From Escherichia phage vB_EcoP_PR_Kaz2018, in the sequence record MN510331.1: a stretch of DNA of 39,704 nucleotides. One strand, written 5' to 3'. This document shows positions 1 to 36,188 of this stretch, piece by piece (position 1 is the stretch's first letter; each line of letters begins with the position of its first letter). Both the position numbers and the translations under genes were made by a program. The notes under the pieces were generated by a model. That model was not told where the DNA came from, ran no database searches, and saw only the letters and a program-made list of their open reading frames with translations.

Positions 1-178
1 TCTCACAGTTCAAGAACCTCAAGTCTCCCCATAGGCCCTCTTTAAGTCCAGACCAAAGGCCCTACCCCAGTCTGTCATAAGGTTGGACCGATGGTCAAGA
101 CTTCAGGTCAACGATAGGTCAAGGCTATGGCTTAGGGAAGGACGATAGGTAGGGGCTATAGGTCTGTCTTTGAGTCTC
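1..178. repeat. Left direct terminal repeat (178 bp)
   Basis: Bases 1..178 are identical to 39527..39704 by direct reading; T7-like genomes carry direct terminal repeats of this order of size. Confidence 0.95.
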
Positions 179-204: not shown

Positions 205-316
205 CCTACAGTCATAACCTCTACATCTCATAACCATAACTCAAAACCTACAGTCTAACTAACCTACAGTCATAGAACCATCGGTAACCACTACCTACAG
301 TCAGAGACCTACAGTT
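205..316 (+). repeat. Array of five CCTACAGT(C/T) direct repeats next to the left terminal repeat
   Basis: Copies at 205..213, 247..255, 263..271, 294..302 and 308..316, irregularly spaced. Confidence 0.8.
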
Positions 317-567
317 AATAGACACAAAGGTATAGACTTAAGGTCTAAGACATGTTAGTCAAAGACTATATCCTCTTACACCAAGGGGCCGACGATAGCT
401 TAATCAATATTATTTCAAATTACCTATTGACTACAGGTCCAGACTATGGCTTAATAGCTTCCGTCAACACGACACGGCAACAACCGGATAGTGAAGACGC
501 CTGGTCATCCAGGTTAAGTAGACAGCCTGATAAGTCATACGAACAACAGGCAGATGACAATAAGTAG

Positions 568-597
568 TTGACAAGATGTAACGATAAGATGTAAGCT
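568..597 (+). promoter_or_regulatory. Candidate host sigma70 early promoter (TTGACA, 18-nt spacer, TAAGCT)
   Basis: Perfect -35 TTGACA at 568..573 and TAAGCT at 592..597; spacer resembles the T7 A2/A3 early promoters as I remember them. Confidence 0.4.
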
Positions 598-721
598 GTA
601 CCACATCGAAACAACGGTGATGACCAACACTGAAATGGTCTACCTGAAGTCCTCTGACTGAAGGGAATGCTCTTTAACAATCTGGATAAACTCTTAATGT
701 GCGCCGATAGCGACTAACTAC

Positions 722-767
722 AGGGCCTTTGAGTCTACATCTGAAGGCCCTGACTGATAGTCACTAA
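722..767 (+). promoter_or_regulatory. Early intergenic element, copy 1: hairpin plus TGACTGATAGTCACTAA box; putative RNase III site
   Basis: 8-bp stem AGGGCCUU/AAGGCCCU (722..729 with 744..751), then the box at 751..767, directly upstream of a gene start. Confidence 0.45.
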
Positions 768-784
768 CTTAAAGGATGAACACT

Positions 785-1030
785 ATGAAACACTTAAGCA
801 CAATCACTAATCACAATGAAGTATTCGTGAACACTAAAGGTTATGCGTGGATTCAGCTTAAAGAGATGAGAGGAGCGCGTCACCGTGTGGTAGTTCGCAA
901 GGTCTCAAGCAAGCCGTTCAGCAACTACAGCGTAGATACTGTGCGTATAGACAACGAGACCTACCTGATAGATTCGCAGATAACCGTGAGTCCTACAGCG
1001 GGCGTCTCAGCTCCTTATTTCGCTAACTGA
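785..1030 (+). CDS. Hypothetical early protein (about 81 aa)
   Basis: ORF track 776..1030; AAGGA at 772..776 favours the second in-frame ATG at 785; no family recognised. Confidence 0.6.
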   Translation: MKHLSTITNHNEVFVNTKGYAWIQLKEMRGARHRVVVRKVSSKPFSNYSVDTVRIDNETYLIDSQITVSPTAGVSAPYFAN

Positions 1031-1113: not shown

Positions 1114-1623
1114 ATGGAACGTAACGCTAACGCATACTATGAGCTGCTGGCTGCAACCGTTGAGCTGTTCAATGAGCGTATTCAGTACGACGAAATAGCT
1201 GAAGGCGATGACTACTATGATGCGCTGCATGAGGTCGTAGACGGTCAGGTTCCGCACTATTACCACGATATTTTTACGGTGATGGCTGCTGATGGTATAG
1301 ACCACGAGTTCGAAGACTCTGGGCTGATGCCTGAAACCAAGGACGTAACGCGTATACTACAAGCTCGCATCTATGAGGCACTGTATAACGATGTGTCTAA
1401 TAGCTCTGAGGTGGTCTGGTTTGAGGCTGAAGAGGAAGACGAAAAGGCTGAATATTGGGTAGTTGACACTAGAACAGGCGAGATAATTGAGGCAGCTGTA
1501 TCACTTTACGAGGCTATTGCATGTGCAAAAGAACTCTATGAGGAAGGTTTTCACATGCAGGTCGAAGACATCAACGATAACGTAGTGTTCGATCCTGCGG
1601 CTGCTGAGGAGGACTGCGAGTGA
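1114..1623 (+). CDS. 0.3: Ocr-like anti-restriction DNA-mimic protein with a ~55-aa C-terminal extension
   Basis: Residues ~20-105 align with remembered T7 Ocr ([43 protein letters not shown]); strongly acidic; RBS GAGAGGA upstream. Confidence 0.9.
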
Positions 1624-1772
1624 TGGTAACTTATGGTCTCTGCCAGCACCACGTCACCAACGCCAGGCTTATGGTCAAGACCGGGCGATTAAACCACGAG
1701 GAGTCTATGCGTCTCTTGAAAGTGGTCTACAGGAGACGCAAGCGCATACACGACAGCTTACACGCTAAGTGA
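1623..1772 (+). CDS. Hypothetical small basic protein (49 aa)
   Basis: ATG overlaps the ocr stop (TGATG); GAGGAGGA at 1606..1613; below the 60-aa cutoff of the ORF track. Confidence 0.35.
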   Translation: MVTYGLCQHHVTNARLMVKTGRLNHEESMRLLKVVYRRRKRIHDSLHAK

Positions 1773-1779
1773 TAGACTA

Positions 1780-1820
1780 CAGGTCATCGAATGCTAGGTG
1801 GCCTGACTGATAGTCACTAA
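1780..1820 (+). promoter_or_regulatory. Early intergenic element, copy 3; putative RNase III site
   Basis: 7-bp stem CAGGUCA/UGGCCUG followed by TGACTGATAGTCACTAA at 1804..1820. Confidence 0.45.
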
Positions 1821-1839
1821 AACTGATAGGGGTTAACTA

Positions 1840-2007
1840 ATGAAATTTACAATCATCGCACTTTACATCGCCAGCATTCTGTCATGGCTAACTGCGGTCA
1901 TAGTCGATGGGAATGCACTACGTCTTGGCTGGCTGGCAGTGGACATAATATTCTCTCCGGTAGGGATCGTGCGCGGTCTACTGATGTGGATTGGACTGGC
2001 GGGATAA
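1840..2007 (+). CDS. Hypothetical small membrane protein (55 aa)
   Basis: Hand-translated MKFTIIALYIASILSWLTAVIVDGNALRLGWLAVDIIFSPVGIVRGLLMWIGLAG; two hydrophobic segments; follows element copy 3. Confidence 0.45.
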   Translation: MKFTIIALYIASILSWLTAVIVDGNALRLGWLAVDIIFSPVGIVRGLLMWIGLAG

Positions 2008-2010
2008 TCT

Positions 2011-2208
2011 ATGAGTCTTGCACTATTGATAGCCATAGGCTATGGACTTATCACCTACGTGCTGGTGAGAGACATCGACAAAGCGCGTAAAGTCTACAAA
2101 TTCAACTATGTACGTCTGGGCCGCTGGACTGTACGTCAACCTAACGGACGATTCATGCGCAACTTAGCGAACGTCTGGGACATAGCAACTATTGGGAGTA
2201 AACTGTAA
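2011..2208 (+). CDS. Hypothetical small protein with N-terminal hydrophobic helix (65 aa)
   Basis: ORF track; starts 3 nt after the preceding stop, suggesting translational coupling. Confidence 0.45.
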   Translation: MSLALLIAIGYGLITYVLVRDIDKARKVYKFNYVRLGRWTVRQPNGRFMRNLANVWDIATIGSKL

Positions 2209-2288
2209 TGAAAACCGTATACATTAACAAGCCATCTATCCGTTAGCCGTATAGAGCAATACAGCGTGACGTGTTCTTACATAGTCGC

Positions 2289-2468
2289 ATGAAGGCTGAG
2301 GGCCATAAGTCCGAACTGATGTGTCTGGCGTATGGTGGACGACCGATCACTGACGATGGTAGACTTTTAGTCTCAGGCTGGAAGGCGATAGACCAACGGT
2401 CAACCATCAAGCACACGACTCATGGTGACTTCAGTCATCTTCACGCTAACCCACTGATATGCAAGTAA
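2289..2468 (+). CDS. Hypothetical protein (59 aa from the internal ATG)
   Basis: ORF track 2271..2468 starts on GTG; first ATG at 2289; no clear RBS. Confidence 0.25.
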   Translation: MKAEGHKSELMCLAYGGRPITDDGRLLVSGWKAIDQRSTIKHTTHGDFSHLHANPLICK

Positions 2469-2473
2469 TTATG

Positions 2474-2496
2474 ACTTAACTATCACTATAGGACTC
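2474..2496 (+). promoter_or_regulatory. Phage-RNAP promoter upstream of the RNA polymerase gene
   Basis: ACTTAACTATCACTATA-GGACTC, +1 G at 2491; same core as the ten other copies. Confidence 0.7.
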
Positions 2497-2565
2497 AAGG
2501 TCTAAGACTCCAAGTGAAAGACCAAAGAGACTTTAAGTGAAAGACTAATAACAAGGACTTTAAGT

Positions 2566-5247
2566 ATGAGCGTCATCTCTATTGATAAACACGACTTCTC
2601 TGATGTGTCGAACGCCATTGAGCCGTTTAACCTGCTGGCCGACCACTACGGGCAAGATCTTGCAGTCAAACAGCTTCAGCTTGAGCATGAGGCATACACT
2701 GAAGGCGAGCGACGTTTCATCAAGAACCTTGAGCGACAGACTGAGCGCGGGGAACTGGCAGACAATCAGGTCGCCAAGCCTTTGATGCAGACTCTGGTCC
2801 CTAAGATTGCGCAAGCCGTCAAGGAGTGGCACGAAGGTCCAGACGGGAAGCTGTCAACCTCTCGTCCTAGCGTAGCGTTCACCATGTTGAGCACTGAAGA
2901 GAAGGCCGTCAAGGACCGCTCACTGCGTATCTCTTGCGAGTCTGCTGCGGTCATCATACTGAAGGTCATACTCTCCAAGCTGGTCAAGCCTGAGGGGATA
3001 CCAATTACACCGATGGCTTCCGCGATAGGTCGCACACTTGAGGATGAAATCCGCTTCGGTCGCATCCGTGACAAGGAGAAGGAGCACTTCAAGAAGGCGA
3101 TAGCTGAGAACCTGAACAAGCGAGCTGGGGTATCCTACAAAAAAGCCTACATGCAAGCGGTTGAGACCTCCATGTTGGAGCAAGGACAACTTGAAGATGC
3201 GTGGGGAACTTGGAGTCCTACAGAGGCTGTCCACGTTGGCATCAAGATGCTTGAGATTGTCATCCAGTCAACACAACTGGTAGAGCTTAAGCGGTACGGT
3301 GCTGGCAATGCAGCGGCTGACGTAGAGATGGTCCACCTGTCAGACTTCTGGGTCAAGAAGATGGCACAACGAGGATTCAGCCTTGCGGGTATCGCTCCAG
3401 TCTACCAGCCTTGCGTCGTTCCACCTAAGCCGTGGACTGGTGTCGTAGGTGGCGGGTACTGGGCCAAAGGTCGCAGACCGCTGCCCCTGATTCGCTTAGG
3501 GTCTAAATCAGCGGTGGCACGTTATGAAGACGTATACATGCCTGAAGTCTATGACGCTGTGAATATCATCCAGAATACACCTTGGAAAGTGAACAAGAAG
3601 GTTCTAGACGTGGTGAACATGGTCGAGAAGCTGAACAACACGCCTATTGATGACATCCCTCAGATGGAACCGCTGAAGCCTGAAGACTATGCGGGTGAGA
3701 CTGAAGAGGAACTCAAGGCATGGAAGAAGGCTGCTGCTGGTATCTACCGCCGAGAGAAGGCCCGGCAGTCACGCAGATTGTCACTGAGCTTTATCGTTAA
3801 CCAAGCGAACAAGTTCTCTCAGTTCAAGGCCATCTGGTTCCCGTACAACATGGACTGGCGCGGTCGCGTCTACGCTGTGCCGATGTTCAACCCTCAGGGT
3901 AACGACATGCAGAAGGGTCTCCTGACTCTGGCAGTCGGTAAGCCTATTGGTGCTGACGGTTTCAAATGGCTGAAGGTCCATGGTGCAAACTGCGCGGGTG
4001 TTGATAAAGTCACCTTCGAGGAGCGCATCAAGTGGGTGGAAGACAACCACGAAAACATCATGGCTGCTGCTAAGGCACCGATGGATAGTATTGAGTGGTG
4101 GGGCAAGTTAGACTCTCCGTTCTGCTTCCTTGCGTTCTGCTTCGAGTATGCTGGTGTAATGCACCACGGATTGTCTTACTCCTGCTCACTGCCGATAGCG
4201 TTCGATGGGTCATGCTCAGGGATTCAGCACTTTAGCGCGATGCTTCGTGATCACATCGGTGGACATGCAGTAAACCTAACGCCTTCCGGTAAGGTCCAAG
4301 ACATCTACCGAATCGTGTCCGACCGCATTGAGGGAGAGCTTAAAGTCCTGCTGGTTAACGGCACGGACAACGAGATGGTAACTCACGAGGACAAGAAAAC
4401 TGGTGAGATTACCGAACGCCTCAAGCTGGGGACACGAGAGCTGGCCCGGCAGTGGCTGACTTACGGCATGTCACGCAAGGTCACTAAGCGTTCAGTAATG
4501 ACTCTGGCCTATGGGTCGAAAGAGTACGGCTTCGCAGACCAAGTTTATGAGGACATCGTGATGCCAGCGATTGACTCAGGGTCTGGCGCTATGTTCACCG
4601 AACCAAGCCAAGCGTCCCGCTTCATGGCTAAGATGATTTGGGAAGCTGTGAGCGTGACCGTAGTTGCTGCGGTTGACGCGATGAAGTGGCTTCAGGGTGC
4701 TGCCAAGCTGCTGGCTGCTGAAGTGAAGGACAAGAAGACTGGAGAAATCCTGAAGCCTTGCCTTCCGGTACACTGGGTAACACCTGATGGTTTCCCGGTC
4801 TGGCAGGAATACCGCAAGAAGGATACCACTCGTCTGAACCTGATGTTCTTAGGGTCATTCAACCTTCAACCTACGGTCAACAAAGGCACGAAGAAAGAGC
4901 TTGACAAGCACAAGCAGGAGTCAGGCATTAGCCCGAACTTCGTCCACTCACAAGATGGTAGCCACCTCCGCAAGACTGTAGTCCACACGCATCGCAAGTA
5001 TGGCGTGATGTCATTCGCAGTGATTCATGATAGCTTCGGGACCATCCCGGCTGACGCTGAACATCTGTTCCGTGGTGTCCGTGAGACGATGGTCGAGACC
5101 TACCGCGACAACGATGTGCTGCTTGACTTCTACGAGCAGTTTGAATACCAGCTTCATGAGAGCCAGCGCGACAAGTTGCCTGAGCTTCCGAAGAAAGGTA
5201 AACTGAATATCGAAGACATCTTGTCTTCAGACTTTGCATTCGCTTAA
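2566..5247 (+). CDS. 1: Single-subunit DNA-directed RNA polymerase (893 aa)
   Basis: Colinear with remembered T7 RNAP over the whole length (e.g. FPYNMDWRGRVYAV, HGANCAGVDKV, DGSCSGIQHFSAMLRD, IHDSFGT, ending SDFAFA). Confidence 0.98.
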   Translation: MSVISIDKHDFSDVSNAIEPFNLLADHYGQDLAVKQLQLEHEAYTEGERRFIKNLERQTERGELADNQVAKPLMQTLVPKIAQAVKEWHEGPDGKLSTSRPSVAFTMLSTEEKAVKDRSLRISCESAAVIILKVILSKLVKPEGIPITPMASAIGRTLEDEIRFGRIRDKEKEHFKKAIAENLNKRAGVSYKKAYMQAVETSMLEQGQLEDAWGTWSPTEAVHVGIKMLEIVIQSTQLVELKRYGAGNAAADVEMVHLSDFWVKKMAQRGFSLAGIAPVYQPCVVPPKPWTGVVGGGYWAKGRRPLPLIRLGSKSAVARYEDVYMPEVYDAVNIIQNTPWKVNKKVLDVVNMVEKLNNTPIDDIPQMEPLKPEDYAGETEEELKAWKKAAAGIYRREKARQSRRLSLSFIVNQANKFSQFKAIWFPYNMDWRGRVYAVPMFNPQGNDMQKGLLTLAVGKPIGADGFKWLKVHGANCAGVDKVTFEERIKWVEDNHENIMAAAKAPMDSIEWWGKLDSPFCFLAFCFEYAGVMHHGLSYSCSLPIAFDGSCSGIQHFSAMLRDHIGGHAVNLTPSGKVQDIYRIVSDRIEGELKVLLVNGTDNEMVTHEDKKTGEITERLKLGTRELARQWLTYGMSRKVTKRSVMTLAYGSKEYGFADQVYEDIVMPAIDSGSGAMFTEPSQASRFMAKMIWEAVSVTVVAAVDAMKWLQGAAKLLAAEVKDKKTGEILKPCLPVHWVTPDGFPVWQEYRKKDTTRLNLMFLGSFNLQPTVNKGTKKELDKHKQESGISPNFVHSQDGSHLRKTVVHTHRKYGVMSFAVIHDSFGTIPADAEHLFRGVRETMVETYRDNDVLLDFYEQFEYQLHESQRDKLPELPKKGKLNIEDILSSDFAFA

Positions 5248-12920: not shown

Positions 12921-14936
12921 ATGTTTGACCTTAAGAGTATCTGGGGTTCTGACATCGAGACCAACGGTCTCCTTGATACAGTCTCCCAGTTTCACTGTGG
13001 GGTCCTGATTAACGCCGAGTCGAATGAGACCCTTAAGTATGGGGTAGCTCCGATGGTCGGTATCGTCGGCGGCTTCAAAGAGTATGTTCATAAAGTGGAA
13101 GAGATTGCCGCATCACCTGATGGTATGCTGGTATTCCATAACGGTATCAACTATGACGTCCCGTCTATAGACAAGCTGAAGCGTTTGTACTTTGGGAAAC
13201 GCTTTAACTTCCCGAAACATAAGATGATTGATACCTTGGTGCTGGGACGCTTGATGTATCCAAACATTAAGTTCTCAGACATGGGCGCGGTGAAAGCTGG
13301 TCGTCTGCCACCTAAGATGATGGGACGCCAGTCTCTTGAGGCTTGGGGCTATCGTCTCGGTGAGATGAAAGGTGAGTACAAACACGATTACGTTGCCAAG
13401 TGCAAGGCTGAAGGTATCGAATATAAGGCTGGGGACGAATGGTTGTTCCCGTCTCAGGAGATGCTGGACTATAACGTTCAAGACGTTGTGGTCACACTGG
13501 CGTTGTTCAAGAAGTTCCTGACTGACAAGTATTACTTCCAGTCTGAACAGTTCGCTTTCGACCAGATTTATGCGTTGCGTCTGGAACATGATGCTGCGTG
13601 GACCTGTGCGAAGATGGAGCGTAACGGCTATCCGATGAACACCGAGATGGTCGAAGGCTTATATCGTGAACTCACTGTCAAACGTGCAGAGTTGCTGGAC
13701 AAGCTGCGTTCGACTTTCGGTAGCTGGTACGCACCAAAGGGAGGCAAGGAGTTCTTCAGGCATCCACGGACAGGTAAGGACCTTCCGAAGTATCCGAGGG
13801 TCGTGTATCCTAAGGTCGGTGGCATCTTTAAGAAGCCGAAGAACAAAGCTCAACGCTTATGTCTTGAACCTTGTGAACGCGATACGCGAGACACGATGGA
13901 AGGAGCACCATTCACGCCAATCACTTACGTTGAGTTTAATCCGGGAAGCGGAGACCACTTAGCGAAAGTCCTGATGGAGCGTGGCTGGGAGCCTGTTGAC
14001 TTCACTGACACCGGGAAACCTGTAGTCGATGACGAGACGTTGGAACACGTTAAGTTACCAGACGCAGAGGCTCAGGCTTGCGTAGAGCTGGTCCGTGAGT
14101 ATCTGGTAGTCCAGAAGCGCATCGGACAGGCTGCTGAAGGTAAGAACGCATGGTTGAAACTTGTAGGTCCAGACGGACGTATGCACGGTTCAATCAACCC
14201 TTGTGGAGCAGTAACCGGACGTGCGACCCATAGTTCACCAAACATGGCTCAGGTCCCGGCTAACGGTGCTCCGTATGGTGAGACTTGCCGTGGTGCTTTC
14301 GGTGCAGCGTGGAACAAGAAGGATGGCAAGCCAGACCCTTGGATTCAAGTAGGTGTGGATGCTTCAGGTCTTGAGCTTCGTTGTCTGGGGAACCGTGCGT
14401 CTCCGTTCGATGGTGGCGAATACGCGAAGACTGTGGTCGAAGGTGACATCCACTGGGCCAATGCGGTCAACGCAGGGTTAGCACCTAACGTCCCACGCGA
14501 TAAGTCTAACCACGACCATGAGGCTTTCCGCAACAACGCCAAGACGTTCATCTATGCGTTCCTGTATGGTGCAGGGGCCGCTAAGATTGGACTGATAGTT
14601 GGCGGTGGTAAGAAGGAAGGTTCAGCTCTCATGAAGAAATTCATTGAGGGTACACCAGCCATCAAGGACCTCAGGGAAGCTGTGAGTAATACGTTAATAT
14701 CAGACTCTAAGTGGGTGGACGGAGAGAACATCGTCAAGTGGAAACGCCGTTGGCTGCGTGGACTTGATGGTCGTCGTATCCACATCCGGTCCCCGCACTC
14801 AGCACTTAACGCCCTACTTCAGGGTGACGGTGCGGTGGTCTGTAAGCACTGGATAGTCGAGACCGAGCGTATGCTTGAAGAAGCTGGCTATGTCCACGGC
14901 TGGGAAGGTGACTTTGCGTACATGGCTTGGGTTCAT
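12921..14936 (+). CDS. 5: DNA polymerase, exon 1 (672 codons)
   Basis: Colinear with T7 gp5 from the 3'-5' exonuclease domain to ...GDFAYMAWVH; the ORF then hits TAA where T7 continues DEIQ... Confidence 0.95.
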
Positions 14937-15534
14937 TAACATCATGGTGCACATTAAATCTGGTGAACTCGGTGAACTCCTAATGGGACAATACCGAGCC
15001 AAGCCATAGGGAGGATGTATGAGAGGCAAGAAGTTAATTCTTGAGGCCACTGAGACTGGCTGCATAATCCCTACGTCACATAAATTGAATCAGGATGGAT
15101 ACTTCCGAAAGAGGACTAACGGTGTCCTTGAGATGTATCATAGAACTGTATGGATTAAAGCTAATGGTCCAATACCTGAAGGTTTCGAAGTAGACCACAA
15201 GTGTCGTAATAGAGCTTGTTGCAACGTCGAACATCTACAAGTATTAGACCGTGACTCACACTTAGTCAAGACCAACCAAGAGCGATACGCTGCTAGGAAG
15301 CTAGAAGCACGAGACTACTGGGTAGAGACTGGGTGTACAGGAACGAAGTTAGCCGAAGTATTCAATGTGTCGTTCTCAGCCGCCTGTGGGTGGATTAGAG
15401 AGTGGAAGGCGTAGAGACTATCCGAAAGGAGTAGGGCCGTGGGTGAGATTCCCACGTAACCCGAAGCGCCAGACAGTCACCTCAAAGACTGATGATATAG
15501 TCCGACACTTCCAGTAATGGGAGAATACAGAAAG
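14937..15534 (+). mobile_element. Group I intron in the DNA polymerase gene, containing an HNH endonuclease ORF
   Basis: 5' exon ends in U (14936) and intron ends in G (15534); candidate guide sequence GUGAAC (14963..14968 or 14972..14977) pairs with exon GUUCAU with a U-G wobble; flanking exons rejoin in frame. Confidence 0.8.
15019..15414 (+). CDS. HNH homing endonuclease encoded within the intron
   Basis: Motif EVDHKCRNRACCNVEHLQVLDRDSH is a His-Asn-His metal-finger signature; RBS GGGAGG upstream. Confidence 0.85.
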   Translation: MRGKKLILEATETGCIIPTSHKLNQDGYFRKRTNGVLEMYHRTVWIKANGPIPEGFEVDHKCRNRACCNVEHLQVLDRDSHLVKTNQERYAARKLEARDYWVETGCTGTKLAEVFNVSFSAACGWIREWKA

Positions 15535-15690
15535 GATGAGCTGCAAATTGCGTGTCGTACTCAGGAGATTGCCGAAGAAGTCGTCAAGATTGCTCAACTT
15601 GCTATGCGTAAGGTGGGCGAGTTCTATAACTTTAAATGCGTCCTTGACACCGAAGGGAAGATTGGACCAACGTGGAAGGAGTGCCACTAA
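15535..15690 (+). CDS. 5: DNA polymerase, exon 2 (51 codons plus stop)
   Basis: Hand-translated DELQIACRTQEIAEEVVKIAQLAMRKVGEFYNFKCVLDTEGKIGPTWKECH matches the remembered T7 gp5 C-terminus. Confidence 0.85.
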   Translation, partial: DELQIACRTQEIAEEVVKIAQLAMRKVGEFYNFKCVLDTEGKIGPTWKECH

Positions 15691-31700: not shown

Positions 31701-32601
31701 GCGTAAGTTCGATGACCGCTGGCTGAAGACCGCTGGTATCTCTGACGAGCAGTGGAAGGGAATTAAGTCCCTCATCCGTGAATCAGTGACTCGTGGTCCA
31801 GACGGGAAGTATACCATCAAGGATAAGAAGGCGTTCAGTCAGGACCCAAGGGCTATGGACCTGTGGCGTATGGGTGATACCATCGCTGACGAAACGTTAC
31901 TCCGGCCCCACAAGCTGTCCAACATGGACGCCAAGGCTTATGGTCCTCTCGCTAAGACTGTCCTTCAGTTTAAGAACTTCGTCATCAAGTCCATCAATGG
32001 ACGTACCATGCGAACCTTCTATAACGCCACGAAGAACAACCGAGCGATGGACGCTGCTCTATCCACTGTGATCTCTATGGGTCTTGCTGGTATCTACTAC
32101 ATGGCTCAGGCGCACGTCAAGGCTTACGCTATGCAGGATGGTAGAGACCGTGATTACCTCAAGCAAGCTCTTGACCCGACGATGATTGGGTATGCGGCTC
32201 TGTCCCGTAGTTCACATCTGGGCGGTCCACTTGGGGTAGCTAACATTCTGGGTGGCATCGCTGGGTATGAGGACACTAAGATGCTCCGTTCGTCTATCCT
32301 ACCTCGTTCGCCTACAGAGAAGCCTGAACGTGCCATCGCGTATGGTGCAGCTACAAGTGACCCTGTGATGAATGTTGTTGGTAACTTCTTGGAGCAGGTT
32401 CCAGCTTTCGGATATGCTGCTAACGTTGGCGCTTCGGCTTACAACTTGGCTGGCTACCTCAAGGCTGATACTCGTGTCAACGAGCGTGACTACATGACCG
32501 GGATGTATAATACGTTCCGTGAACTGGTTCCGAACGACCCAATTACCCAGAAGCTGTTGCTTGGAACGTTTGAGGAGCAAGGTATCCACATCAAGGACTA
32601 A
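28714..32601 (+). CDS. 16: Internal virion protein C (ejection protein); N-terminal domain unlike the T7 transglycosylase
   Basis: From ~residue 250 colinear with T7 gp16 (ARWNNHKW, LRSPTGMQSGASGK, ENNSFLEARNLFDSD, YNRRVNGDIAIM, LSRSS.LG); start at ATG 28714 (AAGGAG 7 nt upstream) rather than track 28696. Confidence 0.95.
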   Translation: MATRGIRNNNPGNIRVSKDQWEGMTGDDGAFVTFDSPESGVRALGKNLLSYGRQGYDSIEKIINRWAPPNENETKAYIDSVVAATGIPATQSLDLSDPDTLSSLAQAISFHETGSRYDPEVYQKGVARALNGISPKTPPVSANVFDALTEGLKAKPKVALGENLPTAAGLNIEGQAPEAANESFGEMFYKSTGETMQEREDRSTWFGFGSATEAEVKNSMVGVAIRAGQTEDSLDVIGDVFNPARWNNHKWSREELDQIRNAGVLPQYYGVITGGSPQNLTELINLALENQKLDQEKAKAGTGAQLAAGVIGAGVDPLTYVPIAGQVGKGAKLVNKMFTVAAQSGALAGVSEMARTSVAGGDAHVAEAILGGALFGGGMTAIADGLGRALGKSTNEFAGPATRLEARETARNVDGQDLSRLPIQEGEQTFSHQGVKFADVPNEPGSVRLEDGSILIGENPLNPKTRQVFDEVIEPERAAAGVNLGGLTEIGLKLLRSENPEIRGVAADLVRSPTGMQSGASGKIGTTASDVFERLRAVDHRFYNDIDDAVTEALKDPYFQTAFWRDSGAFRQDIYQRVSMAIEDGSGNLKAELTPGELKVYDLLKNQFDAKREMMENPAMFGRSDAQSIFPGSRFKGTYVPHVYSKQMKELYTKELGSPEALQEAIKKSWLTSYASRPEVKKRVDEALLESDPTLTPEGLAAAVDKYANDKAYGISHTEQFERSSVMEENINGLVGLENNSFLEARNLFDSDMSIVLPSGQTFSVNNLREWDMDKIVPAYNRRVNGDIAIMAGTGKTTKEMKDLVETMMNKAGDDGKLKGEVSTLRDTLKILTGRARRDGADDAAFATVMRTMTDLSFFAKNAYMGVQNLTEIGGMLARGNVRAMLHGVPIFSDLAFRNKKVGASEIKDLHNVIFGKELDDSIRPSKQDVIDRLRSYSDLGRGAATALGTAKYYTGELAVRSPFTKVLNGTTNYLLDAGRQGFLSDIVEHSLTGSKRKFDDRWLKTAGISDEQWKGIKSLIRESVTRGPDGKYTIKDKKAFSQDPRAMDLWRMGDTIADETLLRPHKLSNMDAKAYGPLAKTVLQFKNFVIKSINGRTMRTFYNATKNNRAMDAALSTVISMGLAGIYYMAQAHVKAYAMQDGRDRDYLKQALDPTMIGYAALSRSSHLGGPLGVANILGGIAGYEDTKMLRSSILPRSPTEKPERAIAYGAATSDPVMNVVGNFLEQVPAFGYAANVGASAYNLAGYLKADTRVNERDYMTGMYNTFRELVPNDPITQKLLLGTFEEQGIHIKD

Positions 32602-32619
32602 ACTATCACTATAGGAAAC
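32597..32619 (+). promoter_or_regulatory. Phage-RNAP promoter for the tailspike gene
   Basis: ACTAAACTATCACTATA-GGAAAC, +1 G at 32614; the gene 16 stop TAA is inside the promoter. Confidence 0.8.
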
Positions 32620-32665
32620 GGGAGGCGCTATCATAGGTCTCCGTTTAATTCATAAAGGAGGCATA

Positions 32666-35600
32666 ATGTCCACGATTACACAATTCCCTTCAGGAAACAC
32701 TCAGTACAGGATTGAGTTCGACTACCTCGCCAGAACGTTTATTGTTGTTACGCTGGTGAATAGCTCTAACCCTACCCTGAACCGTGTACTGGAAGTTGGT
32801 CGAGATTACCGATTCCTTAATCCAACGATGATTGAGATGTTGGTTGACCAATCAGGTTTCGACATCGTTCGTATTCACCGTCAGACTGGAACTGACTTAG
32901 TGGTAGACTTCAGGAATGGCTCAGTGTTGACAGCTAGTGACCTGACCAATTCAGAGCTTCAGGCTATCCATATTGCAGAAGAAGGTCGAGACCAAACGGT
33001 TGACTTAGCGAAGGAATATGCCGATGCTGCTAGTAGCTCTGCTGGCAACGCTAAGGATAGCGAGGACGAAGCACGACGAATCGCTGAGAGTATCAGGGAA
33101 GCTGGTCTAATTGGCTATATTACCCGTCGCTCCTTCGAGAAAGGCTACAACGTTACAACATGGAGCGAGGTCCTGCTATGGGAAGAGGATGGTGATTATT
33201 ACCGCTGGGATGGTACGCTTCCAAAGAACGTTCCTGCTGGTTCAACTCCTGAAACTTCCGGTGGGATTGGATTAGGTGCGTGGGTTAGTGTTGGTGATGC
33301 TGCTTTAAGAAGTCAGATTTCAAATCCTGAAGGGGCAATACTCTACCCTGAATTACATAGAGCACGCTGGCTTGATGAAAAAGATGTTCGTGGTTGGGGT
33401 GCTAAAGGTGATGGTATCACTGATGATACAGCAGCGTTAACGAGCGCATTAAACGACATACCGGTTGGACAAAAGATTAATGGCAATGGGAAGACATATA
33501 AGGTCACATCCCTGCCTGACATTAGTCGCTTCATCAACACTCGTTTCGTTTATGAGCGCATTCCCGGACAACCTCTTTATTATGCCTCTGAGGAATTTGT
33601 TCAGGGTGAGTTGTTCAAAATAACGGACACCCCTTATTACAATGCGTGGCCTCAGGATAAAGCGTTCGTATATGATAATGTGATATATGCACCTTACATG
33701 GGTAGCGATCGTCATGGTGTTAGTCGTCTGCATGTATCATGGGTTAAGTCTGGTGATGATGGGCAAACATGGTCTACTCCAGAGTGGTTAACTGATCTGC
33801 ATCCAGATTACCCTACAGTGAACTATCACTGTATGAGTATGGGTGTATGTCGCAACCGTCTGTTTGCCATGATTGAAACACGTACTTTAGCCAAGAACGC
33901 ATTAACCAATTGTGCATTGTGGGATCGCCCCATGTCTCGTAGCCTGCATCTTACTGGTGGTATCACTAAAGCTGCAAATCAGCAATATGCAACAATACAT
34001 GTACCAGACCACGGACTATTCGTGGGTGATTTTGTTAACTTCTCTAATTCTGCGGTAACAGGTGTCTCCGGTGATATGACTGTTGCAGCCGTAATAGATA
34101 AGGACAACTTCACGGTTCTTACACCCAACCAGCAGACTTCAGATTTGAATAACGCTGGAAAGAATTGGCACATGGGTACTTCTTTCCATAAGTCTCCATG
34201 GCGTAAGACAGACCTTGGTCTAATCCCTCGTGTCACAGAGGTGCATAGCTTTGCTACTATTGATAACAATGGCTTTGTTATGGGTTATCATCAAGGCGAT
34301 GTAGCTCCACGCGAAGTTGGGCTTTTCTATTTCCCTGACGCTTTCAATAGCCCATCTAGTTATGTTCGTCGTCAGATACCATCTGAGTATGAACCAGATG
34401 CGTCAGAGCCATGCATCAAGTACTATGACGGTGTATTATACCTTATCACTCGTGGCACTCGTGGGGATAGGCTAGGTAGCTCTTTGCATCGTAGTAGAGA
34501 CATAGGTCAGACTTGGGAGTCACTGAGATTTCCACATAATGTTCATCATACTACATTACCTTTTGCTAAAGTAGGGGATGACCTTATTATGTTTGGTTCA
34601 GAACGTGCAGAAAATGAATGGGAAGCAGGTGCACCAGATGATCGTTACAAGGCATCTTATCCTCGCACCTTCTATGCACGCTTGAATGTAAACAATTGGA
34701 ATGCAGATGATATTGAATGGGTTAACATCACTGACCAGATTTATCAGGGCGGAATAGTTAACTCAGGTGTAGGTGTTGGTTCGGTAGTTGTGAAGGATAA
34801 TTACATCTACTACATGTTTGGTGGAGAGGACCATTTTAACCCATGGACCTATGGAGATAACTCAGCGAAGGACCCATTCAAAGCGGATGGTCATCCCTCA
34901 GATTTGTATTGCTACAAAATGAAGATTGGCCCAAGCAATCATGTTTCCCGTGATTTCAGGTATGGTGCTGTACCTAACAGAGCTGTTCCCGTGTTTTTTG
35001 ATACGAATGGGATTCGCACTGTTCCTGCGCCAATGGAATTTACAGGGGATTTGGGTTTAGGCCATGTGACCCTTAGAGCCAGCACCAGTAGTAACATTCG
35101 CTCTGAAGTTTTAATGGAAGGTGAATATGGGTTTATCGGGAAGTCTATACCGACTGATAACCCGGCAGGGCAGCGCACCATATTTTGCGGAGGTGAAGGC
35201 ACCAGTTCAACGACTGGCGCACAGATTACGCTTTATGGTGCAAATAACACCGACTCAAAGCGAATAGTTTACAATGGTGATGAGCATCTGTTCCAGACTG
35301 CTGACGTTAAGCCTTATCACGATAACGTCATTGCGCTTGGTGGACCAAGTAACCGTTTCACAACTGCATATCTCGGAAGCAACCCTATTGTTACTTCTAA
35401 TGGGGAGAAGAAAACAGAGCCGGTAGTTTTTGATGATGCTTTCCTCGATGCCTGGGGTGACGTTCACTACATCATGTATCAATGGTTAGATGCTGTTCAA
35501 CTGAAAGGCAATGATGCTCGTATTCACTTCGGGGTTATTGCTCAGCAAATTCGTGATGTATTCATTGCACACGGTCTGATGGATGAAAACAGTACGAATT

Positions 35601-35860
35601 GTCGTTATGCCGTTCTGTGTTATGACAAGTATCCACGGATGACCGATACGGTATTTTCGCACAATGAAATCATTGAACACACTGACGAGGAGGGTAATGT
35701 CACTACTACGGAAGAGCCTGTATTCACTGAGGTGGTTATCCATGAAGAGGGTGAGGAGTGGGGTGTTCGGCCTGACGGAATTTTCTTTGCTGAAGCCGCT
35801 TATCAGAGAAGAAAACTGGAAAGAATCGAAGCCAGACTTTCTGCTCTTGAACAGAAGTAA
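32666..35860 (+). CDS. 17: Tailspike: gp17-like adaptor + endosialidase + C-terminal chaperone domain (1064 aa)
   Basis: First ~140 aa match T7 gp17 (FDYLARTFIVVTL, LVVDFRNGSVLTASDL, IHIAEEGRD); two sialidase Asp-boxes SGDDGQTW and SRDIGQTW; C-terminal ~150 aa resembles self-cleaving chaperone domains. Confidence 0.95.
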   Translation: MSTITQFPSGNTQYRIEFDYLARTFIVVTLVNSSNPTLNRVLEVGRDYRFLNPTMIEMLVDQSGFDIVRIHRQTGTDLVVDFRNGSVLTASDLTNSELQAIHIAEEGRDQTVDLAKEYADAASSSAGNAKDSEDEARRIAESIREAGLIGYITRRSFEKGYNVTTWSEVLLWEEDGDYYRWDGTLPKNVPAGSTPETSGGIGLGAWVSVGDAALRSQISNPEGAILYPELHRARWLDEKDVRGWGAKGDGITDDTAALTSALNDIPVGQKINGNGKTYKVTSLPDISRFINTRFVYERIPGQPLYYASEEFVQGELFKITDTPYYNAWPQDKAFVYDNVIYAPYMGSDRHGVSRLHVSWVKSGDDGQTWSTPEWLTDLHPDYPTVNYHCMSMGVCRNRLFAMIETRTLAKNALTNCALWDRPMSRSLHLTGGITKAANQQYATIHVPDHGLFVGDFVNFSNSAVTGVSGDMTVAAVIDKDNFTVLTPNQQTSDLNNAGKNWHMGTSFHKSPWRKTDLGLIPRVTEVHSFATIDNNGFVMGYHQGDVAPREVGLFYFPDAFNSPSSYVRRQIPSEYEPDASEPCIKYYDGVLYLITRGTRGDRLGSSLHRSRDIGQTWESLRFPHNVHHTTLPFAKVGDDLIMFGSERAENEWEAGAPDDRYKASYPRTFYARLNVNNWNADDIEWVNITDQIYQGGIVNSGVGVGSVVVKDNYIYYMFGGEDHFNPWTYGDNSAKDPFKADGHPSDLYCYKMKIGPSNHVSRDFRYGAVPNRAVPVFFDTNGIRTVPAPMEFTGDLGLGHVTLRASTSSNIRSEVLMEGEYGFIGKSIPTDNPAGQRTIFCGGEGTSSTTGAQITLYGANNTDSKRIVYNGDEHLFQTADVKPYHDNVIALGGPSNRFTTAYLGSNPIVTSNGEKKTEPVVFDDAFLDAWGDVHYIMYQWLDAVQLKGNDARIHFGVIAQQIRDVFIAHGLMDENSTNCRYAVLCYDKYPRMTDTVFSHNEIIEHTDEEGNVTTTEEPVFTEVVIHEEGEEWGVRPDGIFFAEAAYQRRKLERIEARLSALEQK

Positions 35861-35993
35861 TAAACAAAACCCTTTTGCCATTAAGTTGGTGGGGTAGATG
35901 TTAGAAGGTTGTGGAGGTAGAGGCTAACTACACGCTAGACAACATAGGTAACAACTTTGGGTCACGGACGACCCGCTTTAAACTGGAGGTTTT

Positions 35994-36188
35994 ATGATTG
36001 AGTTAGACTTCAAGAATGAGGTCCTTAAAGCCTCTCCTATCGTCGGGACCGCTGCGGCTGATGGTGCCAGTCGGTTCTTCTTCGGACTTACACTGAACGA
36101 ATGGTTCTATGTTGCAGCTATCGCGTACACCGTTGTCCAGATTGGTGTGCTAGTCTACAAAACGATTAAAGGAGGTGGTAAAACATGA
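35994..36188 (+). CDS. 17.5: Holin (class II)
   Basis: MIELDFKNEVLKASPIVGT...FFGLTLNEWFYVAAIAYTVVQIG matches T7 gp17.5. Confidence 0.85.
   Translation: MIELDFKNEVLKASPIVGTAAADGASRFFFGLTLNEWFYVAAIAYTVVQIGVLVYKTIKGGGKT

Follow-up and report, generated by a model that had tools for sequence, protein, structure and literature searches.

Which receptor-binding protein is specified by the long open reading frame upstream of the holin gene in this podophage DNA, and how were its parts brought together? The window analyzed here, which is the whole stretch of 39,704 nucleotides, carries this frame on the plus strand, and the program-made list of open reading frames gives it an ATG start and 1064 codons followed by a stop, exactly as described in an earlier note on this DNA. 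That note had proposed a chimera made of a T7-gp17-type anchor, an endosialidase and, at the C terminus, a domain acting as chaperone; searches with Pfam, PDB and BLASTP agree on this architecture. Combined, the comparisons indicate with a probability of about 0.97 that the frame is gene 17 of a K1F-like phage of the T7 group (Kayfunavirus) and that it encodes the homotrimeric endosialidase tailspike EndoNF. The positions of the gene, of its expression signals and of its domains are given in Table 1.

Table 1. Features of gene 17 and its upstream region (window coordinates)
Feature	Residues	Position	Strand	Evidence
phi17-type phage-RNA-polymerase promoter, AACTATCACTATAGGAAAC		32601..32619	+	19-mer scan
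Shine-Dalgarno sequence AAGGAGG		32652..32658	+	7 nt 5' of ATG, direct sequence reading
Gene 17, predicted endosialidase tailspike precursor		32666..35860	+	ORF, identity to K1F gene 17, K1F annotation
T7-gp17-type N-terminal anchor (particle-binding)	~6-120	32681..33025	+	BLASTP, PF03906, PDB 7BOZ
Tailspike N-terminal 'neck' domain PF18668	156-211	33131..33298	+	Pfam, E 4.6e-19
Endosialidase N-terminal extension	246-312	33401..33601	+	PF12218, E 8.5e-37
Catalytic six-bladed beta-propeller	313-754	33602..34927	+	PF12217, E 4.5e-222 (cut-off 24 bits)
Asp-box 1, SGDDGQTW	362-369	33749..33772	+	
Beta-barrel inserted in propeller	424-506	33935..34183	+	PF12195, E 1.7e-47
Asp-box 2, SRDIGQTW	610-617	34493..34516	+	
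Stalk (triple beta-helix / tailspike domain)	757-910	34934..35395	+	PF12219, E 5.3e-78
Predicted autoproteolytic cleavage site, Thr910/Ser911		35393..35398	+	K1F mat_peptide boundary
C-terminal intramolecular chaperone domain (CIMCD / Peptidase S74)	911-1064	35396..35857	+	PF13884, PDB 3GW6

Genetic setting and expression signals

The order gene 16, gene 17, holin gene 17.5 corresponds to the position of gene 17 in the late operon of T7-group phages, with a phi17 promoter ahead of it. This promoter and the stop codon of gene 16 (32599-32601) overlap by one base, the first of the promoter and the last of the codon, and a promoter phi17 is annotated at the equivalent place in T7 and EcoDS1. When up to 3 mismatches were allowed, 10 copies of the 19-mer were found on the plus strand of the window whilst 0 were expected from 100 shuffles. 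As the sequence shows, gene 17 is transcribed from this phage-polymerase promoter of its own and specifies a precursor of 1064 aa. Scans for other signals gave numbers close to those of shuffled sequences, with 6 sigma-70 promoters (7.2 in shuffles) and 2 intrinsic terminators (2.8 in shuffles), none of the latter being called in the intergenic stretch 3' of gene 17. No Rfam family reached its gathering score between positions 32300 and 36300, and the RNA fold predicted for 35855-35995 was not notable (z = -0.74).

Domain organization of gp17

Homology of the N-terminal part to T7 gp17 had been claimed over ~140 residues; the homology was observed, whereas its extent is shorter and ends near residues 113-120. 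BLASTP aligned residues 6-113 with T7 gp17 at 39% identity (E 8e-19), PF03906 was detected on residues 10-120 (E 1.2e-15, 57.9 bits for a cut-off of 25.2) and PDB 7BOZ was matched by residues 6-115. Beyond residues 6-113, BLASTP revealed no further significant similarity to T7 gp17, as expected from the claim that the remainder of the protein is unlike it. A helical linker separates the anchor from the neck, which is included in a conserved module (residues ~150-245) missed by the earlier note. PDB matches over residues ~150-265 comprise the CBA120 tailspike 4OJ5 together with 5W6H, 5W6F, 6NW9 and others, and 9VVR was matched over residues 1-264. The anchor of K1F gp17 is a working docking module in engineered phages (PMC13352976).

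The endosialidase itself begins with an N-terminal extension that starts just 3' of a GAKGDGxTDDT motif corresponding to a recurrent recombination junction. Residues 245-910 were aligned with the EndoNF structures 1V0E and 3GVL with a score of 1545 bits and ~18 substitutions over 666 residues (~97% identity). The comparison with endosialidase structures that had been suggested was made by sequence, and 1V0E, 3GVL and 3GW6 were all matched at about this level. The residues H350, R549, E581, R596 and R647, to which catalytic and substrate-binding roles have been attributed (PMC13564897), are all unchanged in gp17. Two Asp-boxes had been reported near positions 33750 and 34495 and were found exactly there; the pattern S.D.G..W has a mean of 0.0095 occurrences in shuffled versions of gp17, two or more copies were obtained in 0 of 20,000 shuffles, and none is present in the 40 other CDSs of the window (9,749 aa). 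The beta-barrel inserted in the propeller is a polysialic-acid binding site in EndoNF (PMC13564897). The stalk forms the end of the mature protein: crystal constructs stop at T910 and the K1F mat_peptide gp17* stops at the equivalent base.

Because gp17 is 97% identical to the crystallized enzyme and all catalytic and substrate-binding residues are conserved, its predicted substrate is the polysialic acid of the K1 capsule, the specificity that the earlier note had put forward. According to their records, K1 hosts (O18ac:K1:H7, K1 LU_100) served for the isolation of several of the closest relatives.

The chaperone domain and the predicted maturation of the spike

The C terminus had been proposed to resemble the cleavable chaperone domain of endosialidases, and two matches point to such a domain: PF13884 (Peptidase_S74) on residues 914-971 (E 5e-9, 36.7 bits for a cut-off of 22) and PDB 3GW6, the construct of the EndoNF intramolecular chaperone, on residues 790-1064 (E 3e-182). 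The boundary between gp17* and gp17-CTD in AM084414 (35390/35391) corresponds to window positions 35395/35396, and the sequence NPIVT/SNGEKK is conserved around it. We take the catalytic dyad to be S911/K916, a numbering that relies on an equal spacing of 5 residues. Both residues are present in gp17, as are N912, G956 and the K1F-type extended loop T977-H1026. N912 and G956 have been named as essential for K1F, for which the same source describes the dyad only through its MYRF counterparts, S578/K583 (PMC3742443).

By analogy with published work on K1F, residues 911-1064 would chaperone trimerization and the folding of the stalk; the domain would then remove itself through autoproteolysis between T910 and S911, dependent on Ser911 and Lys916. 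The mature spike (residues 2-910) would dock on the tail, at the gp11/gp12 interface, via its T7-gp17-type anchor. Binding sites for alpha-2,8-polysialic acid would lie in the beta-barrel, in the propeller and in the stalk, and the propeller active site would cut the polymer, which may open the phage a path across the K1 capsule as far as the outer membrane. For this allele, activity and cleavage are both predicted from homology.

It could be imagined instead that gp17 is a catalytically dead spike that only binds its substrate, or that the gene is a pseudogene with residual similarity to endosialidases. Such a decay is extremely improbable: the frame of 1064 codons is unbroken, the promoter and ribosome binding site are intact, none of the catalytic and autoproteolytic residues has been lost, and 58 of the 87 nucleotide differences from K1F gene 17 affect third codon positions. 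A functional EndoNF thus remains the preferred reading.

Relation to K1F and to other alleles

Between gene 17 of the window and that of K1F, identity is 97.3% for nucleotides and 97.4% for the protein (1036/1064 residues), and the coordinates are those of DQ111067. The K1F records annotate gene 17 as endo-N-acetylneuraminidase or gp17 precursor, with gp17* and gp17-CTD as products, and they agree with the length of 1064 aa that the earlier note had given. No observation was found to speak against the EndoNF assignment.

Of the 28 residues that differ from K1F, 5 lie in the anchor, 2 in residues 151-245, 2 in the N-terminal extension, 7 in the propeller with its barrel, 9 in the stalk and 3 in the chaperone domain. 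These substitutions might leave the fold and family unchanged and yet shift specificity or processivity, by retuning either the K1 strains that are recognized (O-acetylated polysialic acid, O-antigen background) or the sialic polymers that are used (e.g. K92). They are most closely spaced in the stalk (9 in 156 residues compared to 7 in 442 for the propeller), a region that a deep-mutational scan termed an adaptive 'tuning knob' acting on processivity and host discrimination (PMC13564897). However, 24 of the 28 changes are common to Mt1B1_P3, and the allele is an ordinary one within its clade. The residues are exchanged conservatively (R865K, S878T, V783I and I803L are examples), and none of the changes affects the catalytic and substrate-binding residues listed above. 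We therefore consider a shift of this kind unlikely. That the unrecorded allele, with its substitutions concentrated in the stalk and including R865K and N885H, could measurably alter processivity or the discrimination between K1 strains appears slightly more doubtful still; if true, the allele would test, as a natural variant, the 'tuning knob' role that the 2026 deep-mutational scan gave to the stalk. The preferred reading is that of an EndoNF with the K1 specificity of its relatives.

The nearest alleles are those of the Kayfunavirus phages Mt1B1_P3, vB_EcoA_ASO2B and vB_EcoP_FFK3, with 99.0-99.2% nucleotide identity (27-32 differences over 3195 positions); gp17 of Mt1B1_P3, at 99.2% nucleotide identity, differs by 6 residues. 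I251, A475, K865 and H885 were seen neither in K1F nor in Mt1B1_P3, and 6 nucleotides of gene 17 are carried by none of 11 natural alleles. No recorded protein is identical to the 1064-aa sequence, and the 80-nt stretch 35250-35329 has no exact match in IMG/VR. We also considered that gene 17 might be a majority consensus of natural alleles; this was rejected, as it shows 49 differences from the consensus of the 11.

Over the whole window, positional identity to K1F is 95.28% for 39,704 bases, with 1,875 substitutions and 0 indels. The threshold for assigning phages to the same species is ~95% nucleotide identity over the genome, which places the window at the borderline. Substitutions in the right arm are nearer to Mt1B1_P3 and ASO2B, and a difference of 23 nt is present near 35885 in Mt1B1_P3. 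The window appears to be a K1F-coordinate sequence and not K1F itself; since indels are absent, it appears to be K1F-templated, and therefore this precise allele of gene 17 may not occur as such in a natural isolate.

Mosaic structure and horizontal acquisition

The earlier note had suggested that the depolymerase part was acquired horizontally, and this is well supported, by mosaic homology more than by composition. Firstly, the 5' part of the gene belongs to a block (residues 1 to ~216, neck included) that is common to Kayfunavirus-type phages with differing spikes. Nucleotide identity of ~95% is confined to positions 1 to ~635 of the gene in many phages of Salmonella, Klebsiella, Enterobacter and E. 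coli, and gp17 of EcoDS1 is near-identical up to residue ~216. In phage 101120B1-2, whose spike has 843 aa, identity is 94% over residues 1-263 with divergence past residue ~252, and 214 nt of the 3' end of gene 17 are retained behind this different spike. Secondly, the remainder of the gene recurs elsewhere. Identity of ~91% is confined to positions 952-2303 in K1E/K1-5-type Vectrevirus phages, and the cassette starting between residues ~141 and 235 is found in Shuimuvirus IME207 (92% aa identity) and in UE-M3 of the Schitoviridae (86%). The exchange junctions lie at ~33300 (residues ~212-216) and ~33424 (residue ~253) on the left, neither of which matches the end of the T7-like segment, and at ~35647 or 35937 on the right. 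Combined, these alignments indicate that gene 17 is a mosaic of an anchor and neck conserved in the lineage (residues 1 to ~216/252) and of an endosialidase-chaperone cassette that, judged by its distribution, circulates among unrelated phage families.

With regard to composition, GC content is 0.453 in gene 17 compared to 0.499 in the genome, and GC3 is 0.39 compared to 0.554 for the other genes pooled. The 665-codon catalytic block has a GC3 below that of all 110 blocks of the same size taken from other genes. Within the gene, the best GC3 split falls after codon 188 (position 33230; 0.479 on the left, 0.371 on the right, z = 2.75), a step that is not significant alone, the same z being reached in 67 of 500 permutations; for raw GC, the change point is at 33304 with z = 1.8. 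An AT-rich shift from about 33200 onward, as claimed earlier, is thus correct in its direction and approximate place, whereas the internal change point is weak. The robust signal of composition is the difference between the gene and the genome rather than an internal step.

These data bear on the possibility that gene 17 owes its AT-richness to selection within the phage, acting on codon usage or amino-acid content, and was not acquired horizontally. The lack of a significant internal step is consistent with it, as are the somewhat low GC3 of the anchor part itself (0.46) and the similarly low GC3 of gp17 of EcoDS1, another Kayfunavirus spike (0.41-0.44 throughout). Homology at the DNA level is nevertheless mosaic with sharp junctions, the same cassette is present in Vectrevirus, Shuimuvirus and Schitoviridae backbones, the remnant in 101120B1-2 adjoins a replacement spike, and the K1E endosialidase gene is likewise low in GC (0.419) and GC3 (0.328). 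A purely native origin is therefore very improbable, and horizontal acquisition of the cassette is preferred.

Comparison with known systems

The biology of gene 17 is already published, and the gene represents a textbook example, not a discovery. Few phage depolymerases are as well characterized as EndoNF, for which crystal structures exist of both the enzyme and the chaperone domain (PDB 1V0E, 1V0F, 3GVJ-L, 3JU4 and 3GW6). Its domain architecture and a full deep-mutational scan have been reported (PMC13564897), it is used in phage engineering (PMC13352976), and for the exchange of receptor-binding domains, T7 and K1F gp17 have been called a 'type example' (PMC6872550). The present analysis is of use in that it confirms the identification made in the earlier note, sharpens the boundaries of the modules and flags a K1F-coordinate sequence.

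The closest known system is gp17 of K1F (gene 17.0 in DQ111067, gene 17 in AM084414), which has the same length, genome coordinates, domain order, and catalytic and cleavage residues. The tail fibre gp17 of T7 shares a homologous anchor, the same gene position and the phi17 promoter, and is unrelated past residue ~120; it is a lipopolysaccharide-binding fibre in contrast to a capsule-degrading enzyme (PMC6872550). In the K1E/K1-5/K1A-type endosialidases of Vectrevirus (e.g. Z36986, 811 aa), propeller and barrel are near-identical (residues 318-750), overall identity is 72% over residues 234-1055, and the protein likewise has a stalk followed by a chaperone domain that can be cleaved off. However, their stalk is divergent, their chaperone domain is devoid of the extended loop of ~45 residues and they carry no T7-type anchor; attachment relies on a separate adaptor protein (PMC6872550). 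Lastly, phi29 gp12 (PDB 3GUD, over residues 915-1014) and T5 pb1 (4UW8) gave direct PDB matches to gp17, and the PF13884 core with its Ser-Lys dyad is common to gp17, these two proteins and the eukaryotic MYRF, whose link to intramolecular chaperone or Peptidase S74 domains has been described (PMC3742443). What sets gp17 apart from other S74-family domains is the K1F-specific loop T977-H1026, which is required for endosialidase folding and is missing in most other members of the family (PMC3742443).

Gene 17 encodes the complete endosialidase domain series

A single long open reading frame (32666..35860, plus strand, 1064 aa, start codon ATG) was found in the ORF listing between a gene-16-type ORF of 1301 aa on one side and a holin-type ORF of 64 aa on the other. 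A Pfam search of its product, gp17, returned the full ordered set of domains from the T7-type anchor through Peptidase_S74 (see table). The two sialidase Asp-boxes claimed in the earlier note are both present where it placed them. The pattern S.D.G..W occurs on average 0.0095 times per gp17 shuffle, with two or more copies in 0 of 20,000 shuffles, and was not found in the window's other 40 CDSs (9,749 aa); the motifs are therefore real, correctly placed and not due to chance. The proposed C-terminal chaperone domain was likewise recovered, both as Peptidase_S74 and as a match of aa 790-1064 to 3GW6 (stalk plus intramolecular chaperone). The T7-like N-terminus is present, but measurable similarity ends at aa 113-120 and not at residue 140; T7 gp17 (7BOZ) matches aa 6-115. 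Two crystal constructs of EndoNF, the gp17 of coliphage K1F (1V0E and 3GVL), match aa 245-910 with ~18 substitutions, and an 843-aa tailspike (9VVR) matches aa 1-264 (E 7e-181).

The region up to ~aa 216 forms a lineage-conserved block that includes a PF18668 domain unnoticed in the earlier note. K1F-type gp17 is commonly drawn as "anchor only". PF18668 of gp17 is related by homology to the part that comes before the beta-helix in solved spikes such as the CBA120 tailspike 4OJ5. In some phages (EcoDS1) the domain accompanies the anchor, and in IME207 it accompanies the endosialidase.

A phi17 promoter is annotated in T7 and EcoDS1 at the position equivalent to that of the phage-polymerase promoter preceding gene 17. 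Scans of the region surrounding gene 17 gave no RNA family, no convincing terminator and no unusual RNA structure. Ten 19-mer copies of the T7-group promoter core (A)ACTATCACTATAGG are present in the window, all on the plus strand with 0 expected by chance, and probably mark the phage-RNA-polymerase promoters of the genome.

Features of gene 17, its product and the promoter set
Feature	gp17 residues	Window position (nt)	Strand	Evidence
Promoter-core 19-mers		2478, 5556, 7187, 8503, 17181, 20002, 21001, 25325, 32601, 38856	+	window scan
Phage-polymerase promoter AACTATCACTATAGGAAAC		32601-32619	+	1 of 10 plus-strand copies, 0 expected by chance
Ribosome-binding site AAGGAGG		7 nt upstream of gene 17 ATG	+	sequence
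Phage_T7_tail	10-120			Pfam, E 1.2e-15
Tail_spike_N (PF18668)	156-211	33131-33298		Pfam, E 4.6e-19
End_N_terminal	246-312			Pfam, E 8.5e-37
End_beta_propel	313-754			Pfam, E 4.5e-222
Asp-box 1	362-369	33749-33772	+	string read in gp17
End_beta_barrel, inserted in propeller	424-506			Pfam, E 1.7e-47
Asp-box 2	610-617	34493-34516	+	string read in gp17
End_tail_spike	757-910			Pfam, E 5.3e-78
Peptidase_S74, "Chaperone of endosialidase"	914-971			Pfam, E 5.2e-09

Residues assigned to maturation and catalysis are conserved

At the nucleotide level, gene 17 is 97.3% identical to K1F gene 17, which has identical coordinates in the K1F record DQ111067, and 99.0-99.2% identical to the alleles of the Kayfunavirus relatives Mt1B1_P3, ASO2B and FFK3. 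It differs from K1F by 87 nt (58 at third codon positions) and 28 aa; from Mt1B1_P3, gp17 differs by 6 aa. The K1F record AM084414 labels the product "precursor of gp17", with mature peptides gp17* and gp17-CTD split between T910 and S911 (window 35395/35396).

S911, K916, N912, G956 and the T977-H1026 loop are unchanged in gp17, and we take S911 and K916 to be its Ser-Lys dyad. This dyad is given only as the MYRF equivalents S578 and K583 in PMC3742443, where the roles of N912, G956 and the T977-H1026 loop are described. Also unchanged are H350, R549, E581, R596 and R647, which PMC13564897 gives as catalytic or substrate-binding residues of EndoNF.

The architecture and conserved residues come from sequence analysis, and the following steps are drawn from published K1F work (PMC13564897, PMC3742443, PMC6872550). 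The C-terminal domain would drive trimerisation and folding and then excise itself at S911, and the T7-type anchor would dock the mature trimer on the tail. Barrel, propeller and stalk would bind polysialic acid, which would be cut in the propeller, binding and cleavage together allowing the phage to pass through the K1 capsule.

PV615262 (Acinetobacter phage vB_Aba_01KA, recorded host Acinetobacter baumannii) carries a gene 17 98.3% identical to the K1 endosialidase gene of the window, and in its near-twin PV615263 (vB_Eco_1RS) gene 17 is broken into three ORFs over 3193 nt; a wrong host assignment and frameshift errors in the records seem likely.

Homology across phages argues for an exchanged cassette

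The GC content is 0.499 for the genome and 0.453 for gene 17. GC3, which is 0.554 when pooled over the other genes, is 0.46 in aa 1-150, 0.337 in aa 151-245, 0.377 in aa 246-910 and 0.409 in aa 911-1064, and 0 of 110 same-size blocks elsewhere are as low as the catalytic block (665 codons, aa 246-910). The best internal split, after codon 188 (nt 33230), lies close to the AT-rich shift previously placed at ~33200, but 67 of 500 permutations equal it; because of this, the within-gene step taken alone is weak evidence for horizontal acquisition.

The main support for the proposed horizontally acquired chimera is homology across phages, which is stronger than composition and gives strong evidence that gene 17 was assembled in this way. 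In many Salmonella, Klebsiella, Enterobacter and E. coli phages, megablast identity of ~95% is limited to gene nt 1-~635, and in a few of these phages it reaches nt 750. EcoDS1 gp17 (767 aa) is near-identical until ~aa 216 and unrelated beyond. The 843-aa spike of 101120B1-2 matches gp17 over aa 1-263 at 94% identity, diverges past the GAKGDGxTD motif (~aa 252) and has a chaperone domain of its own, only 30% identical to that of gp17. K1E-type endosialidases have a near-identical propeller (aa 318-750) but lack the anchor, and their chaperone domain is shorter. The entire endosialidase-plus-chaperone cassette is found in Shuimuvirus IME207 (92% aa identity from ~aa 141) and in Schitoviridae phage UE-M3 (86% from aa 235).

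Directly downstream of its replacement spike, 101120B1-2 (vB_EcoP-101120B1-2, MZ234022) carries at 4043-4256 a remnant corresponding to the final ~214 nt of a K1F-type endosialidase gene (window 35647-35860). The remnant is annotated as a 54-aa ORF, "tail fiber protein", and lies within an alignment 93% identical overall. It is a recombination scar and shows replacement of the endosialidase cassette in this lineage. On the left, the homology breakpoints thus place natural junctions at ~nt 33306 or 33424; those on the right fall at ~nt 35647 or 35937.

In UE-M3 (PP301342, N4-like; 1332-4979), the chaperone and stalk end (aa ~895-1064, window 35340-35857) is almost identical to that of gp17 whereas the propeller is clearly more diverged, so that mosaicism goes on inside the cassette. 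A K5 lyase is encoded directly after this endosialidase.

The window is colinear with K1F

The window and DQ111067 are equally long (39,704 nt) and can be superimposed base by base: they share the same exact 178-nt terminal repeat and are separated by 0 indels and 1,875 substitutions (4.7%), 374 of them in the 7,196 non-coding positions. Natural relatives of similar identity each align in 7-17 BLAST pieces with many indels. The substitutions look natural in character because 79% of coding differences lie at third codon positions, 41 of 41 CDSs are open, and 1,043 of the 1,755 alignable differences from K1F carry the Mt1B1_P3 base. In the right arm, the window sides with Mt1B1_P3 at SNPs by ~4:1 and yet agrees with K1F at every indel, among them the 23-nt indel at 35885. 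The colinearity suggests a K1F-templated window (a SNP-only reference-guided consensus or otherwise derived) rather than an independent natural assembly, and such an origin is its simplest reading. Gene 17 is 3195 nt long in all natural alleles (n = 11 compared), and the window allele has 6 bases unseen in them, against 8-58 for each natural allele relative to the others; with no length change and so few unseen bases, the reading of gene 17 is therefore unaffected.

At 607 nt, the longest K1F-identical stretch (14934-15540) spans the homing-endonuclease insertion (15019-15414) of the K1F DNA polymerase gene, a segment without counterpart in Mt1B1_P3.

Comparison with the known K1F tailspike

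By every defining feature, the gene 17 product is K1F gp17 (EndoNF). The finding of the earlier note is correct and already known: the same three-part architecture has been described together with a complete mutational scan of EndoNF (PMC13564897), and the anchor and enzymatic parts of K1F have been exchanged by experiment (PMC13352976).
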